Source: a virus. Taken from it: DNA of 64,000 nt. The stretch is taken from the IMG/VR virus record IMGVR_UViG_3300011189_000006, positions 1 to 64,000 of that record. One strand, written 5' to 3'. The notes beneath the pieces are model-generated. The model did not search any database and had not been told where the DNA came from. It saw nothing but the letters and a program-made list of their open reading frames with translations. Shown piece by piece: positions 8,330 through 59,344 of this stretch (positions are counted from its first letter, which is position 1; every line of letters starts with the position of its first letter). Made by a program: the position numbers and the translations under genes.

Positions 8330-8408
8330 AATTATATATATTAAAATATTAACACCACATTTCTAAACTTATTGTTTTAAATTAATATAATACTAAATAA
8401 CAAAAGAT

Positions 8409-8618
8409 ATGAAACTTAGAGATAATGGAATTATAACAAAGGCAGACTATATTGGCAAGACTTTGGGCGAAGCTTCTAAACATGCAGAAAATGGTGGGTA
8501 TGTGACAAGAGTGGTTAGTAACAATGGCCATTCTCCTATGTTAGATATGGATGCTAATCAGAATAGAATGAATTTTATTATTAGTAACGATAGAGTTACT
8601 GATGTATATGGTGGATAA
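8409..8618 (+). CDS. Small protein resembling the peptidase inhibitor I78/potato-I fold
   Basis: YIGKT..EA...RVV..G...MD...RMNF.....VT.V..G pattern. Confidence 0.5.
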   Translation: MKLRDNGIITKADYIGKTLGEASKHAENGGYVTRVVSNNGHSPMLDMDANQNRMNFIISNDRVTDVYGG

Positions 8619-8641
8619 TTAAAAAATAATTATAATAAAAC

Positions 8642-8672
8642 TTGTGAGAACCATTTAATAGTTTTATATTTG
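8642..8672 (+). promoter_or_regulatory. Bacteroidota-type housekeeping promoter (-33 TTG / -7 TATATTTG)
   Basis: TTG at 8642-8644, 20-nt spacer, TATATTTG at 8665-8672, upstream of the tRNA locus. Confidence 0.6.
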
Positions 8673-8742
8673 CATAGTAAAATAAATATAAGATTTTTAA
8701 AGAAAAGTATAAAGAGAGAAAATAATTTTAATATATAGAATA

Positions 8743-8841
8743 ATGAGAACAATTAACACATTTAAGCATTTTAGTAAAAAGTCGTTTTGGTTTAGTCCAA
8801 ACTCGGTAAAGAATGTTATTTGTTCTAATTTTATGATTTGA
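8743..8841 (+). CDS. Attenuator leader peptide 1 (MRTINTFKHFSKKSFWFSPNSVKNVICSNFMI)
   Basis: ATG 5 nt after TTAATATATA motif; FKHFSKKSFWF block matches downstream tRNA-Lys/Phe/His/Trp; followed by a terminator. Confidence 0.75.
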   Translation: MRTINTFKHFSKKSFWFSPNSVKNVICSNFMI

Positions 8842-8899
8842 TATAAAAATAGTAAAAAATATATTTAAAGCCGAGCTTCGAAAGAAATTCGGCTTTTTT
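8781..8899 (+). promoter_or_regulatory. Transcription attenuator 1 (anti-antiterminator / antiterminator / terminator)
   Basis: Terminator AAAGCCGAG(8867-8875)...TTCGGCTTTTTT. Leader segment CTCGGT (8802-8807) can pair with GCCGAG. TTTGG/CCAAA hairpin lies in the leader. Confidence 0.7.
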
Positions 8900-8908
8900 G
8901 TTTTATAT

Positions 8909-8982
8909 AATTCTGTAGCTCAGCTGGTTAGAGCATCTGTCTTTTAAACAGAGGGTCGTGGGTTCGAATCCCACCAGGATTA
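8909..8982 (+). tRNA. tRNA-Lys(TTT)
   Basis: Acceptor AATTCTG/CAGGATT; anticodon arm TCTGT-CTTTTAA-ACAGA; GGTTCGAATCC T-arm; no encoded CCA. Confidence 0.95.
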
Positions 8983-8987
8983 CACAT

Positions 8988-9060
8988 GGAGTAGTAGCTC
9001 AGCTGGTAGAGCACTTGGTTGAAGACCAAGGTGTCGTGGGTTCGAACCCCACCTTCTCCA
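8988..9060 (+). tRNA. tRNA-Phe(GAA)
   Basis: CTTGG-TTGAAGA-CCAAG anticodon arm; GGTTCGAACCC T-arm. Confidence 0.95.
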
Positions 9061-9071
9061 CAAGATTAAAT

Positions 9072-9145
9072 GGTGTGTGTAGCTCAGTAGGTAGAGCGTT
9101 GGCTTGTGGTGCCAAAGGTCGGGGGTTCGAAACCCCTCATACACC
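9072..9145 (+). tRNA. tRNA-His(GTG)
   Basis: G-1:C73 pair; TTGGC-TTGTGGT-GCCAA anticodon arm. Confidence 0.95.
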
Positions 9146-9154
9146 CTAAATAAT

Positions 9155-9226
9155 ACGGACGTAGTTCAAAGGCTAGAATAACGATCTCCAAAATCGTAGA
9201 TGAGATTTCGAAATTCTCCGTCCGTG
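9155..9226 (+). tRNA. tRNA-Trp(CCA)
   Basis: ACGGACG/CGTCCGT acceptor; ACGAT-CTCCAAA-ATCGT anticodon arm. Confidence 0.9.
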
Positions 9227-9257
9227 CTAGAGTTTAATAAAAATAATATATAGTATA

Positions 9258-9329
9258 ATGAAACTTATAAACACATCGAGTAGTTCAAGTCGCTTAATAA
9301 TTTCGAAAGAGATTCGATTGTGTGTGTAA
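9258..9329 (+). CDS. Attenuator leader peptide 2 (MKLINTSSSSSRLIISKEIRLCV)
   Basis: ATG 5 nt after TAATATATA; codons TCG AGT AGT TCA AGT CGC match downstream tRNA-Ser(TGA), Ser(GCT) and Arg(ACG). Confidence 0.8.
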   Translation: MKLINTSSSSSRLIISKEIRLCV

Positions 9330-9381
9330 TTATTTTTTAAAAATATTATTAGCCTTTCGAATTTATTTGAAAGGCTTTTTT
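9302..9381 (+). promoter_or_regulatory. Transcription attenuator 2
   Basis: 11-bp terminator AGCCTTTCGAA/TTTGAAAGGCT plus T6; leader TTCGAAAG (9302-9309) is perfectly complementary to terminator 5' arm CTTTCGAA (9354-9361). Confidence 0.8.
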
Positions 9382-9453
9382 AGTTCTATATTTCAACGGA
9401 TAGAATACTCGGCTACGGACCGAGAGATAGGGGTTCGAATCCTCTTAGAACTA
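9382..9453 (+). tRNA. tRNA-Arg(ACG)
   Basis: AGTTCTA/TAGAACT acceptor; CTCGG-CTACGGA-CCGAG anticodon arm. Confidence 0.9.
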
Positions 9454-9461
9454 CTAATTAT

Positions 9462-9551
9462 GGAAGATTTATCCGAAAGATTCTGGGTAGCGGAGACGGT
9501 CTTGAAAACCGTTTGCTTTAGGGCGTGTGGGTTCGAATCCCACATCTTCCG
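9462..9551 (+). tRNA. tRNA-Ser(TGA)
   Basis: GGAAGAT/ATCTTCC acceptor; ACGGT-CTTGAAA-ACCGT; long variable arm; enlarged D-loop. Confidence 0.9.
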
Positions 9552-9563
9552 CATAATTTTAAT

Positions 9564-9652
9564 GGAAGCGTACTCAATGTTGGCAAAGAGGCTGGTTTGC
9601 TAAACCAGTAGGTCTGTAAAAGGGCGAGTGGGATCGACACCCACCGTTTCCG
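9564..9652 (+). tRNA. tRNA-Ser(GCT)
   Basis: GGAAGCG/CGTTTCC acceptor; CTGGT-TTGCTAA-ACCAG; long variable arm. Confidence 0.9.
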
Positions 9653-11296
9653 CTAGTTTTTTATTAGTTCCTTTAATTCGTCTATTTGCTGTTGTAAGCT
9701 ATCTATCTTATTATTTTGCTCTTTATTCTCATTTTCCTGCTCTGCAAGTTTTAGAGATAAGAAACTATTATAATTAACAGACATCATTCCGTCATCCTCT
9801 GGTTTTTTTACAACTTCTGGATTTATCTTTTCTATTTCTTGGGCTATAGTACCATATACAGTAATCCCTGGTTGGGTTTTTAATTCATAAGAATATACTG
9901 ATTTTGATATCTTTTTAATATTGGTTTTAAGCCTTTTGTCAGAGCCTTCGAAAAAGTTATCTGCTGTAAAATCTCCACTCCAATCTAAATTTTTATCAGA
10001 TGTTAAAGCAAGCCTACCATTATTATCTACTCCAGAGTTTGATGCTAAGTGAAAATCTATATATCTTCCAATCTCCATTAATCCATCGGCACCAACATCA
10101 GGTATAAATGGCCAAGGTATATTTGCATTAGCACCTGCTATACTTAAACCATTTAAAGATGAAGCATCTACATTTGTAATCCGTGATCCATTTCCAATAA
10201 AGTTTTGTGCTGTAACATCGCCGAATGCTCTAAAATTACCCGACCCTCTACTAAATATAAACCTATTTAAAAATGAAGAGCCCGCGTCACGATATATAAT
10301 ATCAGCTCCCATATCAGCTATTAAAGTTGTTCCTGTAGCTTGGTATTTTAAATGACCTACATTACCAAAAGGTGAAGTACCACCTATTTTAAATTGAGAA
10401 TTATCGTTAATAGTTAGTGCACTTCCTGAAAAATTATCACTGGTATTGCTTCTTAAAAAATCATTACTATCTAAACTATCTAAAGTTGCAGCATCTACAT
10501 TTGTAATCTGTGATCCATTTCCAATAAAGTTTTGTGCTGTAACATCGCCATTATAATCCAAATTACCGTTTTCTCTTAAAGTTAGAGATTTGTTAGAAGC
10601 ATCATTTCGTATGCTAAGATCCGAGAACATAGTTATAGGAAATCCAATATAACCTTTGCGTGTTGTTCCGTTAGATTGATAAAATGAATAAAAAGAAGAG
10701 CTATTACTTCCTGGAAGACCTGTTTCAGTAGAACCCTTAATACCAGATCCATTTGGTATTAAAATTTTACTAGAAAAAGTCTTCTCACCATTAATAGTTT
10801 CAACTACACTTCCAGTCGCCCTAACAAAATTCGTACTATCAAAACCATCTAAAGTTTCTGCATCCGTACTTACAGAAATAATACCGTTTGAAATAATAAC
10901 TCCACTACCAATTTTTACACCTCCTAGAACTGCATCCGTTGCTGTTTGTAGGGTATAACCTACACCTGGTATCCTCTCCCAAAAAGTACCATTGTGAATA
11001 ACGTCATCTCCAACATCATATGATATAGACTTATTTCCAGAACTTCCTGAATCGTCTAAATCAGAAGTACCTGCTGTTGTAACTCTATAGTAATGTCCTT
11101 GAACGCCTGTACTATCTGCTAAAGTAGGAGTATTTGTATCTGCGTCCCAAGTGCCTTTATAAACTTGTGATGCAGATATTGGTGTCCATGTTGCGTTTCC
11201 ATCAGAGTCTGTTTTTAAAAAGTAACCATCTACTGCTCCTGATGTTAATTTAATTGTAGGTGCTTCTACGATATCTGCTATTAATTTAGTTGCCAT
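9653..11296 (-). CDS. Tail fibre protein with C-terminal intramolecular chaperone (peptidase S74)
   Basis: SDKRLKTNI...G.IAQEIE...PEVV...VNY followed by a coiled coil; DA.TLDG repeats. Confidence 0.8.
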   Translation of the reverse strand: MATKLIADIVEAPTIKLTSGAVDGYFLKTDSDGNATWTPISASQVYKGTWDADTNTPTLADSTGVQGHYYRVTTAGTSDLDDSGSSGNKSISYDVGDDVIHNGTFWERIPGVGYTLQTATDAVLGGVKIGSGVIISNGIISVSTDAETLDGFDSTNFVRATGSVVETINGEKTFSSKILIPNGSGIKGSTETGLPGSNSSSFYSFYQSNGTTRKGYIGFPITMFSDLSIRNDASNKSLTLRENGNLDYNGDVTAQNFIGNGSQITNVDAATLDSLDSNDFLRSNTSDNFSGSALTINDNSQFKIGGTSPFGNVGHLKYQATGTTLIADMGADIIYRDAGSSFLNRFIFSRGSGNFRAFGDVTAQNFIGNGSRITNVDASSLNGLSIAGANANIPWPFIPDVGADGLMEIGRYIDFHLASNSGVDNNGRLALTSDKNLDWSGDFTADNFFEGSDKRLKTNIKKISKSVYSYELKTQPGITVYGTIAQEIEKINPEVVKKPEDDGMMSVNYNSFLSLKLAEQENENKEQNNKIDSLQQQIDELKELIKN

Positions 11297-23407: not shown

Positions 23408-23533
23408 TATGTTATTAATTTTTATGTCTTTATATATTAAAAACGAATAGCTTATAATTAATATATATGGTTCAAACTACTTATTAGCAAATTAAAACTT
23501 GTTAATGCAAAACAATATATTAATATATAGACT

Positions 23534-32101: not shown

Positions 32102-33397
32102 GTGAACTACTTAACCGCTAAAGGCGGTTAAGTTTCAAGAGTCAACACTTCCTCTAATGAGGACAGTTCGTCATGATTTTCGGTGGCAGTCCCTGACACC
32201 GTATTATTTTTAATTAAAGCAAAGTTTTTAATGTTTATAGCTGCATTAATATCTCTATCATGTTGTGCGTTACACTCCTTACAAGACCACTCACGGTCTT
32301 TAAGCGTTAATTCGTGGTTTATGTCTCCACAACTAGAACAAGTCTTGCTAGAGGGATCGTATCTACCTATTTTAAGTAGATTAACACCATACCAATCACA
32401 TTTGTATTCTAGCATAGTGGTAAACATACCCCACCCAACATCTGAAATAGCCTTGGCTAGTTTTCTATCTTTCATCATGCCTTTAATATCTAAATCTTCT
32501 ATAGCTATAGATTGGTTCTCTTTAACTAGTCTAGAAGATTCCTTATGTAAAAAGTCTTTCCTTTGAAAAGCCGTTTTTTCATGTATTTTTGATAATTTCC
32601 TTTTAGTACGTACTCCTTTGTTTCTAGAGTATTTCCTTTGTGTATATTTTAACTTTGATTCATTATTTTTTAAATATCTAGGATTATTGACTTTATCTCC
32701 TTTTGAGAATACCATAAAATCTTTAATGCCTAAATCTATACCAATGGTCGTCTCAGCTTTTATGACTGGCTTAGGCTTTCTGCCTACACCAGTATCACAT
32801 GATATGCTTACATAATACTTACCAGTTGGTCTTCTAGATATAGTAGCGAACTTTATCGCTCCCTTTGCCGCTCTATGCAACTCAATTTTTATACCTTCTC
32901 TGAATTTAGGTATGGATAGTTTTCCATCATCAAAATATATATTTTGTGGTATATGGAACGATTGCTTACCACTCCATTTAGACTTAAATTTAGGATAGCC
33001 ACTTGTTTTTCTACGAAATCTTTTAAAAGCATTATCTAGGTTTTTAATTGGTGCTTGTAAGGTTTGGCTATTTATTTCTTTTAACCACTCAACATCTTTT
33101 TTAAGACCAGGTATTTGCTTTATTAGGTAGTAACAATCAAAAGGAGTTGTTTTATTTTCGTTAGAAGAATTGTTTACCTCCAACCCTATATTATATATGA
33201 ATCTAGCAGAACCAATATGTTTATTGATTAGTTCTACTTGTTCCTTATTTGGATATAATCTGTACTCAAATGCTCTTAACATAATGTATATATTAATAAA
33301 TATCCCTTCTCTATTACTATTCTAGATTTTATTTGTATATTTGCCTACGCCTTACATCACATCGGCTGAAGACCAATGTGTTTCACGACATGATTTT
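32102..33397 (-). mobile_element. IS200/IS605-family (tnpB-only, IS1341-like) element
   Basis: Right-end hairpin TTAACCGC-CTTTA-GCGGTTAA followed by GTAGTTCAC (minus strand); left-end hairpin CACATTGG/CCGATGTG at 33358-33380; left boundary approximate. Confidence 0.75.
32128..33282 (-). CDS. tnpB: RNA-guided endonuclease TnpB
   Basis: YRLYP HTH; RuvC GIDLG / IEDL / DRDINAA intact; CxxC...CxxC zinc finger. Confidence 0.92.
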   Translation of the reverse strand: MLRAFEYRLYPNKEQVELINKHIGSARFIYNIGLEVNNSSNENKTTPFDCYYLIKQIPGLKKDVEWLKEINSQTLQAPIKNLDNAFKRFRRKTSGYPKFKSKWSGKQSFHIPQNIYFDDGKLSIPKFREGIKIELHRAAKGAIKFATISRRPTGKYYVSISCDTGVGRKPKPVIKAETTIGIDLGIKDFMVFSKGDKVNNPRYLKNNESKLKYTQRKYSRNKGVRTKRKLSKIHEKTAFQRKDFLHKESSRLVKENQSIAIEDLDIKGMMKDRKLAKAISDVGWGMFTTMLEYKCDWYGVNLLKIGRYDPSSKTCSSCGDINHELTLKDREWSCKECNAQHDRDINAAINIKNFALIKNNTVSGTATENHDELSSLEEVLTLET

Positions 33398-49872: not shown

Positions 49873-49920
49873 TATACGTGAACATCAACAAACCACGTTT
49901 GTCTTTTTAATATATATGAT

Positions 49921-53771: not shown

Positions 53772-53786
53772 ATTAATATATAGCTT

Positions 53787-58087: not shown

Positions 58088-58095
58088 TATATTTG
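58088..58095 (+). promoter_or_regulatory. Bacteroidota -7 box (TATATTTG) upstream of the ncRNA array
   Basis: Exact TAnnTTTG about 35 nt before the first structured module. Confidence 0.5.
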
Positions 58096-58131
58096 TCTAT
58101 ATTAAATAATTAAAAGAAAGAAGTGATAATT

Positions 58132-59344
58132 AAACTCTTTTGATTGAAGATAAACTAGGATGTTAAAACCGTCAGTACTCATTAGAGCACTGTTTAGCGT
58201 TTGTCTACCCGAATCTGTATCAGCAGTTGTTTTATTAGAGATATGTAAAGAATAATAGTGTATCGCCCTGCGAAGTCAGTTTAAAAGCTAAAGCTATTTG
58301 ATACATTCTAGAGTGATACTAGTCAGAAGAGTTTTTATTAAAATAATTAACCCTTTAATTAAAAGTAAATAATAATTTAAGTAATCACGTACTGGATATG
58401 GATGTAGTACTTACTACCTGACCTATTAAAAGCCAAATAGACAACGTGTTGGCAAATTATTATACTGTTTATCAGCAGTTGTGTTTATTTTTATGATGTT
58501 TAACTAGCTTTGAAAGCAAAACATCCCAAGTGATGCTGGTTTTGAAGAGGCTATATAATTACTTACAAAGTAATAAAACTCGTACTGACTCTTAACTGAG
58601 AAGTACATGTATATATAAAAGGCAGGTAAAGATCCTGAAGTAAGTAATTTTTTATTAAAATTAAATATTATGAATATAAAGGGAATGTTAATATATGTAG
58701 GATCAGCAATTATACTTTTTATAATATGTTGTTTAATAGACAGGTATGGTAATAAGCCCGATAAACCTACTCCTCCTGGATTTAGATGGGGGGATTGAAG
58801 GAAACCGTTAAGCCTTGAATACGGTGTGATTAAATTAAATAGTCCCAAAACAGATAAACTCCTAGATGAGGTAATGTAATAAGAGGTTAATCACTAAAGA
58901 TAGGTAGGTTATAAGATGTAGTATTAAGTTAATCAATCGTCTATATAGTAGGATAGTTAGCTAACAGCGTACAGAAATGGGTGCAAGTACCATTTGGTTA
59001 TTAAATAAGAAATTAGGAGTCGAAATCTTTAGTTAATACTACATATTATATTTATTAAGTGTACCAACTAATTGTAATAAGGTTGGAAGTAATAATAGGG
59101 AAATAGCTAGTTACTCAGCCCGAACTCAATTGGGGGATTTTGCCAAGAGGTTATGAAAAACAAAATACACTTAGGCAAACAATTTACAGAAAAAAGACAA
59201 TCAGTGACACGCATTAGACGAAACGTAGTAGAATTTTGATTCTAGCGACATTATCTTTTTATCCATTTGTAGTAGTGATAACCCGAACAAAGCTAAAGTA
59301 CACAAAAGGTTATAGGCGATGTACGCTACTACAGATGGTTTTTT
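58132..59344 (+). ncRNA. Array of ~8 stem-closed structured RNA modules (family unknown)
   Basis: Nearly ORF-free; successive long-range closing stems with G-U pairs favouring the + strand (see findings). Confidence 0.6.
58670..58798 (+). CDS. Small single-TM peptide (42 aa) inside the ncRNA array
   Basis: MNIKGMLIYVGSAIILFIICCLIDRYGNKPDKPTPPGFRWGD. Confidence 0.45.
   Translation: MNIKGMLIYVGSAIILFIICCLIDRYGNKPDKPTPPGFRWGD

Follow-up and report, generated by a model that had tools for sequence, protein, structure and literature searches.

How tRNA genes that lie directly behind an intrinsic terminator come to be transcribed is the question raised by a locus near the start of the window analysed here, which is the first 64 kb (64,000 nucleotides, nt) of the 91,134-bp virus record IMGVR_UViG_3300011189_000006 of IMG/VR. 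In this locus, seven transfer RNA (tRNA) genes are arranged in two units in series, at 8743-9227 and 9258-9653, each of which consists of a short open reading frame (ORF), an intrinsic terminator and tRNA genes. The answer, which the evidence below makes likely, is ribosome-mediated (leader-peptide) transcription attenuation of a phage tRNA operon, with two attenuators in series. The features of the locus are:

8642 to 8672, + strand: promoter-like element of the Bacteroidota type (TTG, 20 nt, TAtaTTTG), located by a regular-expression scan; it ends 70 nt upstream of the leader-1 ATG
8729 to 8737, + strand: TAATATATA motif of unit 1, 5 nt before the leader-1 ATG at 8743
8743 to 8841, + strand: leader ORF 1, 32 codons and a stop codon, starting MRTINT
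8761 to 8796, + strand: control run 1, codons 7-18 (FKHFSKKSFWFS), 12 of 12 codons read by downstream tRNAs
8802 to 8807, + strand: antiterminator 5' strand of unit 1 (CTCGGT), which pairs with 8870-8875 and closes a longer helix
8867 to 8899, + strand: intrinsic terminator 1, a hairpin at 8867-8896 followed by a T-tract; folding gives the hairpin a free energy (ΔG) of about -14
8909 to 9227, + strand: tRNA-Lys(ttt), tRNA-Phe(gaa), tRNA-His(gtg) and tRNA-Trp(cca), from ARAGORN and from Rfam RF00005 at 55-74 bits
9244 to 9252, + strand: TAATATATA motif of unit 2, 5 nt before the leader-2 ATG at 9258
9258 to 9329, + strand: leader ORF 2, 23 codons and a stop codon, starting MKLINT; it begins 31 nt after tRNA-Trp
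9276 to 9293, + strand: control run 2, codons 7-12 (SSSSSR = TCG AGT AGT TCA AGT CGC), 6 of 6 codons read by the three downstream tRNAs
9310 to 9317, + strand: antiterminator 5' strand of unit 2 (AGATTCGA), which pairs with 9357-9364
9351 to 9381, + strand: intrinsic terminator 2, an 11-bp hairpin at 9351-9376 with six T at 9376-9381
9382 to 9653, + strand: tRNA-Arg(acg), tRNA-Ser(tga) and tRNA-Ser(gct), from ARAGORN and Rfam

The leader stop codons are 26 nt (unit 1) and 22 nt (unit 2) from the hairpins, and the distance from the end of the terminator to the first tRNA is 9 nt in unit 1 (tRNA-Lys) and 0 nt in unit 2 (tRNA-Arg). Since this leaves no room for a separate promoter between terminator and tRNAs, the tRNAs should be transcribable only by read-through. 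Terminator 2 is the only one detected by a simple terminator scan, while terminator 1, which has an internal bulge, was detected by folding. An earlier note on this DNA had described the same twofold layout of motif, 5 nt, ATG, MxxINT peptide, terminator and tRNAs, and each of these elements is present in its place in both units.

The codons of each leader correspond to the tRNAs that follow it. In the codon background, taken from the 67 ORFs of at least 150 amino acids in the 91-kb record, the share of codons read is 15.7% for the four tRNAs of unit 1 and 5.7% for the three tRNAs of unit 2. The four tRNAs of unit 1 read 11 of the 31 codons in leader 1, with 0.157 as the background fraction (binomial P=0.006); when the two downstream Ser tRNAs are counted as well, 15 of 31 codons are read, including the 12 consecutive codons 7-18. 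In leader 2, 8 of 22 codons are read against a background of 0.057 (P=1.7e-5), including all six consecutive codons from 7 to 12. These densities are unique in the record: none of about 20,000 windows of the phage's long ORFs reaches 9/11 (11-codon windows, for unit 1) or 6/6 (6-codon windows, for unit 2), and the two leaders are the only ones among 517 short ORFs that do. The match extends to the level of isoacceptors, as leader 2 uses TCG, TCA, AGT, CGC and CGA. Three of these are rare among phage codons (CGC 0.04%, CGA 0.11% and TCG 0.26%), the usual Arg codon being AGA. The control codons therefore do specify the amino acids of the downstream tRNAs (K/F/H/W in unit 1; R/S/S in unit 2), as the earlier note had claimed.

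Most control codons are decoded through wobble pairs by the phage anticodons, TTT, CAT and AGT by G-U pairs and AAG and TCG by U-G pairs. AAG, which accounts for three of the four Lys codons, and TCG are favoured in the control runs despite the A/T bias of the genome. Wobble-decoded control codons may raise the sensitivity of the sensor.

Each leader also contains a segment that can compete for its terminator. When a whole leader is folded, here and in the relatives described below, it always forms its terminator; when the 3' arm of the terminator is left out, the 5' arm pairs instead with the part of the leader that immediately follows the control run. The free-energy difference (ΔΔG) for this pairing of the terminator arm is -9.9 kcal/mol in unit 1, compared with -3.05 ± 1.95 in dinucleotide shuffles (5 of 1000 reach the observed value), and -10.8 kcal/mol in unit 2, compared with -2.71 ± 1.99 (2 of 1000). 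The competing antiterminators that had been proposed for both units are thus present in silico and exceed the shuffled controls. The effect of a ribosome was imitated by masking the RNA to 11 nt beyond the A-site codon. In unit 1 the antiterminator is possible with the A site at or before codon 16 (TGG) and is lost from codons 17-18, and in unit 2 the antiterminator strand is free with the A site at or before codon 15.

The mechanism that can be inferred from this anatomy combines translation of the leader, ribosome stalling, coupling with RNA polymerase and read-through. Transcription probably begins at the host-type promoter near 8642-8672, and a ribosome would translate leader 1 on the nascent RNA. 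With fast decoding of the Lys, Phe, His, Trp (and Ser) codons, the ribosome would cover 8802-8807, the terminator at 8867-8899 would form and transcription would stop before the tRNAs. If a cognate aminoacyl-tRNA is scarce, the ribosome would stall within codons 7-16 and leave 8802-8807 to pair with 8870-8875, which would allow RNA polymerase to read into tRNA-Lys, tRNA-Phe, tRNA-His and tRNA-Trp. Leader 2 would repeat the decision with its Ser and Arg codons, the pairing of 9310-9317 with 9357-9364 and the terminator at 9351-9381, before tRNA-Arg and the two tRNA-Ser genes. The new tRNAs would relieve the stall, and through this negative feedback the supply of tRNA would follow the demand of decoding, so that the phage probably makes these tRNAs only when ribosomes run short of them.

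If the codons of a leader set the control, they should change together with the tRNAs in related loci. A blastn search against phage records finds a stretch with 74% identity over leader 1 in an uncultured huge phage of 642 kb, LR756502.1, which has at least 50 tRNA genes in clusters. In that genome, a homologous leader rich in K, H, F and W is followed by a terminator and then by Phe, His, Phe, Trp-like and three Lys tRNAs, and a homologous leader rich in S and R precedes Arg and Ser tRNAs. The clusters contain seven units with a short ORF and a strong terminator, each ORF spelling the tRNAs that follow it, among them:

E/Y leader: Glu-Tyr-Glu-Tyr-Glu tRNAs
leader with three ATA-Ile codons and with Gly and Ala codons: Ile(tat)-Gly-Gly...Gly-Ala tRNAs
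N/L/T/V leader: Asn-Asn-Leu-Val-Ile-Thr-Val-Thr-Leu tRNAs
Q/D/P leader: Pro-Pro-Asp-Asp-Asp tRNAs, in a downstream set of Pro, Asp and Gln
leader with seven consecutive Gln codons (Q7): four tRNA-Gln genes

Several tRNAs of LR756502.1 (L008 373098-373168 and its neighbours; L005:2085-2410), detected by Rfam or by eye, are missed by ARAGORN, a Trp-like gene with a CCA anticodon being one example, so that the codon-match scores of the huge phage are too low. A second group of relatives comes from a scan of IMG/VR with the first 16 nt of leader 1, which are free of control codons. It yields 74 loci, 17 of them with tRNAs within 400 nt downstream, and two of these 17 are near-identical to the window. 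The N-terminus MRTIN is common to leader 1, to the leaders of the 17 loci and to LR756502.1, while in the other loci different control runs stand behind it, each matching its own tRNAs:

IHMISISNWRR: Ser, His, Trp, Ile, Met, Asn and Arg tRNAs
FEFDFFAAEADF: Phe, Glu, Asp and Ala tRNAs
LQVLLLCLLVVV: Cys, Val and Leu tRNAs

Co-variation was scored as the fraction of leader codons read by the leader's own downstream tRNAs in ten non-redundant units from the three sources. With tRNAs within 700 nt, the match is 0.254, compared with 0.082 ± 0.025 for permuted tRNA sets (0 of 200,000 permutations reach it), and within 1600 nt it is 0.423, compared with 0.167 ± 0.040 (again 0 of 200,000). The match is 0.44 in the frame of the ATG and 0.14 and 0.10 in the other two frames, with the ATG frame highest in all ten units. 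This confinement to one frame argues for translation of the leaders, and against an effect of composition or direct pairing between RNA and tRNA. Automated blind detection, which takes a terminator within 60 nt of an ARAGORN tRNA and the longest ORF upstream, finds eight non-redundant units, and all eight match; its yield is low, many of the first tRNAs of clusters in the huge phage escaping ARAGORN. A search for relatives of intermediate distance with the upstream 69-amino-acid protein gave only near-identical contigs with unchanged leaders; LR756502.1 and the MRTIN family are therefore the basis of the co-variation at fine scale.

In one near-identical relative (L036), which has the same leaders, the anticodon stem of tRNA-Lys (8939-8940 and 8948-8949) carries a double compensatory change from GT...AC to CC...GG. 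A bacterial origin was also considered for the leaders: the 16-mer from the leader start, compared with genome contigs, has chance matches only among the 120 listed, none of them before tRNAs. Within the tRNA clusters of LR756502.1 lie two ORFs (L003:3678-4305 and L004:3470-3895), of which one has by eye a start like that of GIY-YIG enzymes and the other an HNH-like pattern of Cys and His. These are probably homing endonucleases that split an attenuator-controlled block. In L004, a further ORF of 67 codons separates the N/L/T/V terminator of this phage from its tRNAs.

The terminator switch is likewise specific to each unit. A hairpin with a T-tract, of ΔG -13 to -19, lies directly before the tRNAs in every unit. 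When terminators are exchanged among units, the own arm pairs best in 12 of 13 leaders, and the mean pairing energy is -9.97 kcal/mol with the own terminator, compared with -4.55 ± 0.73 kcal/mol with swapped ones (0 of 100,000 permutations). In 9 of the 13 units summarised, the pairing is lost cleanly where the control run ends or just beyond it, and the same is found for unit 2 by separate folding; in the Q7 leader, the pairing weakens past the last Gln codon (12) and falls below threshold after codon 14. Unit 2 also shows a compensatory pair, ATTCGA/TCGAAT in the window and GTTCGA/TCGAAC in LR756502.1. The conserved E-I/V-R-L near the end of both unit-2 peptides is accounted for by the pairing of the antiterminator with the terminator arm. 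The permutation, frame and terminator-swap tests together support, at the level of sequence, the view of the earlier note that codon-matched leaders gate the tRNA genes through a terminator/antiterminator switch, and leader codons do co-vary with anticodons in homologous loci, which it had proposed as a check.

The promoter elements fit serial control. In a regular-expression scan, 15 of 21 units have a TTG, 17-22 nt, TAnnTTTG element whose end lies 33-70 nt upstream of the leader ATG. This consensus, which we take to be that of a typical Bacteroidota promoter, suggests a Bacteroidota host; such host-type elements are rare in the window, with nine in all. In the same scan leader 2 has no promoter-like element of its own, and the units without one lie mainly directly behind other tRNAs (unit 2 of the window and the E/Y, I/G/A and Q7 units of the huge phage). 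These promoter-less units are internal attenuators inside one operon. Series wiring in one operon also fits the four Ser codons of leader 1 (AGT, TCG), which are read by the tRNAs of unit 2. The TAATATATA motif, the first element of the layout in the earlier note, is not a dedicated part of the device and is a general gene-start motif of the phage: the window holds 35 exact copies, and 30 of these are followed within 120 nt by an ORF of at least 80 amino acids. Its distance to the ATG is bimodal, either 4-5 nt or 19-25 nt, and it fits a phage-specific promoter (leaderless or with very short leaders) better than a ribosome-binding signal at a fixed distance. Further copies are found at 8335-8343 (- strand), 23521-23529, 33287-33295 (- strand), 49908-49916 and 53774-53782. 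Since the leaders carry TAATATATA-N5-ATG like ordinary phage genes, they have the start context of real genes.

The same attenuator could serve counter-defence, in which it would sense the cleavage of host tRNAs by anticodon nucleases (PrrC, PARIS AriB) and release replacement tRNAs. Unit 1 does hold tRNA-Lys(ttt), and both PrrC and some PARIS effectors target tRNA-Lys. Unit 2 carries tRNA-Arg(acg) (9382-9454) even though CGN codons make up about 0.3% of codons in the long ORFs of the phage, compared with 2.45% for AGA; this tRNA is unexplained by the phage's own codon usage, and compensation for codon usage is a poor explanation of it. However, the sequence does not separate this purpose from general homeostasis, since a balance of supply and demand explains the same anatomy, and the design in the relatives spans nearly every amino acid, far beyond the known nuclease targets. 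As the purpose of the switch, counter-defence is a minority reading and rather unlikely.

It is considerably less probable that the leaders sense decoding but act through Rho loading, RNase processing or the stability of the tRNA precursor. The codon match and its frame specificity show only that translation of the control codons matters, and the internal leaders lie directly behind tRNAs, where processing occurs. Such an output would not, however, require the two features that every unit possesses, a strong hairpin with a T-tract placed directly before the tRNAs and a leader segment complementary to an arm of its own terminator. Still weaker, and hardly credible, is the idea that the ORFs are unrelated chance ORFs with ordinary terminators, that the tRNAs arise from constitutive leaky read-through and that the codon match is coincidence or composition. 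K, F, S, N and I are indeed common in a genome of 30% G+C, and TAATATATA precedes most genes; but no permutation reproduces the match, which is frame-specific, the leaders of the window are unique among its genes and short ORFs and use the rare codons CGC, TCG and CGA, and different tRNA sets in the relatives come with correspondingly different leaders. Direct, T-box-like sensing of tRNA, with triplets that pair with anticodons without translation, is equally implausible: the downstream tRNAs do have anticodons complementary to the triplets, but in all units the triplets stand in frame with the ATG, with a stop codon closing the frame, up to 12 different ones follow in a row, unlike a single specifier, and the leaders, of about 100-160 nt, lack the conserved T-box sequence and match no T-box or other Rfam family even at E≤1.

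Several points weigh against attenuation by leader peptides as described here. The structures all come from thermodynamic prediction, and the mask is a rough model of a ribosome; the masking boundary is unclean in 3 of 13 units, and the core of the unit-1 antiterminator is just 6 bp. The units of LR756502.1 were chosen by eye, while those of IMG/VR were not. Transcription-translation coupling and leader-peptide attenuation have to be presumed for the Bacteroidota host, which is itself presumed, and the sequencing runs listed for this DNA are lake and salt-lake DNA only, with no RNA run among them. With respect to function, extra tRNA would not relieve a ribosome stalled for lack of an amino acid, and the benefit of tRNA-Arg(acg) is doubtful since the phage genes almost never use CGN.

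CheckV estimates a completeness of 42% for the record. The phage genes of the window encode an SbcD-like nuclease, a tail tube and a tail-fibre chaperone domain; SbcD-like, tail-tube and tail-fibre genes are the neighbours of the tRNA locus, and near-identical DNA is found in lake and salt-lake metagenomes. The genes downstream of the leaders are the seven tRNAs only, all of which score above the Rfam cut-off, and a convergent tail-fibre-like gene ends at 9653. The limits of tRNA-Ser(tga) are 9475-9552 in ARAGORN, with an oddly placed anticodon, and 9463-9550 in Rfam, with a proper GGAAGAT/ATCTTCC acceptor stem. The ORF-poor stretch of the window at 58088-59344 has no tRNA and no Rfam family at the gathering threshold. 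Of the RNA-repair genes that might hint at counter-defence, RtcB has no match in the 91-kb record, which is 42% complete, and a search of that record for T4 Rnl1 gave none either, the Rnl1 family being undetected in the controls as well, so that neither result bears on that purpose.

Among Rfam families, the leaders of the His, Leu, Thr and Trp types and the T-box (RF00230) have no match in 8550-9750 at E≤1, where only RF00005 passes, and an Rfam scan of the whole window returns tRNAs only. A full-text literature search, with most subscription journals outside its reach, found no account of leader-peptide attenuation of tRNA genes. It is likely, if somewhat less firmly so than for the locus itself, that Bacteroidota phages carry a widespread, unreported class of codon-resolved sensors of tRNA demand, modular attenuators that are often serial, each with a leader spelled in the codons of its own tRNAs, through which the virus would follow the decoding capacity of the host one amino acid at a time and top up only the tRNAs in short supply, whether the shortfall stems from codon-usage mismatch, host shut-off or anticodon-nuclease defence. 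This bears on the long-standing question of why phages carry tRNAs, for which there are three candidate answers: that they compensate for codon usage, that they replace host tRNAs that have been degraded, and that they allow escape from anticodon nucleases. If the attenuators work as described, phage tRNAs would be a regulated, demand-driven resource and not constitutive cargo, and the leaders would state which codons the phage treats as limiting. The role of phage tRNAs would then become directly testable through the perturbation that opens the attenuator. Classical attenuation would be extended to RNA genes and to viruses, and the units would offer compact, programmable sensors of codon-specific translation speed.

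Several known systems share part of this design. The tRNA clusters of T4 and of huge phages (PMC7162821) are likewise phage-encoded and are sometimes interrupted by homing-endonuclease genes; the description of the huge phages in PMC7162821 makes no mention of attenuation, leaders or terminators. The trn operon of Anabaena sp. PCC 7120 is a long array of accessory tRNAs that, like the phage tRNAs, is silent by default and induced when translation is impaired under stress (PMC8421152, PMC10272220). Unlike the phage units, it is cellular and lies on a megaplasmid, its control is attributed to the protein repressor TrcR (PMC10272220), and neither of these two papers mentions attenuation or a leader. 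T-box riboswitches also sense the state of a specific tRNA through a choice between terminator and antiterminator upstream of translation-related genes, but they bind uncharged tRNA directly and without translation, whereas the phage triplets are bound to a reading frame. The pheM leader of the E. coli pheST operon, an attenuated tRNA synthetase operon, comes closer, in that it controls a component of the translation apparatus for the amino acid of its control codons; it differs in being cellular, in sensing one amino acid and in regulating a protein-coding operon. The closest anatomy is that of the trpL, hisL, pheL, leuL, thrL and ilvL attenuators of biosynthetic operons for amino acids, which likewise have a short translated ORF with control codons, an intrinsic terminator and, immediately downstream of the control codons, an antiterminator strand in competition for the 5' arm of the terminator; in the thr and ilv leaders, several amino acids are also sensed by one leader. 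The phage leaders have no sequence or Rfam relationship to these known families, they are encoded by a phage, and at least two of them lie in series in one tRNA operon. In all described leader-peptide attenuators the regulated genes encode biosynthetic or synthetase proteins, whereas in the phage units they are the tRNAs themselves.

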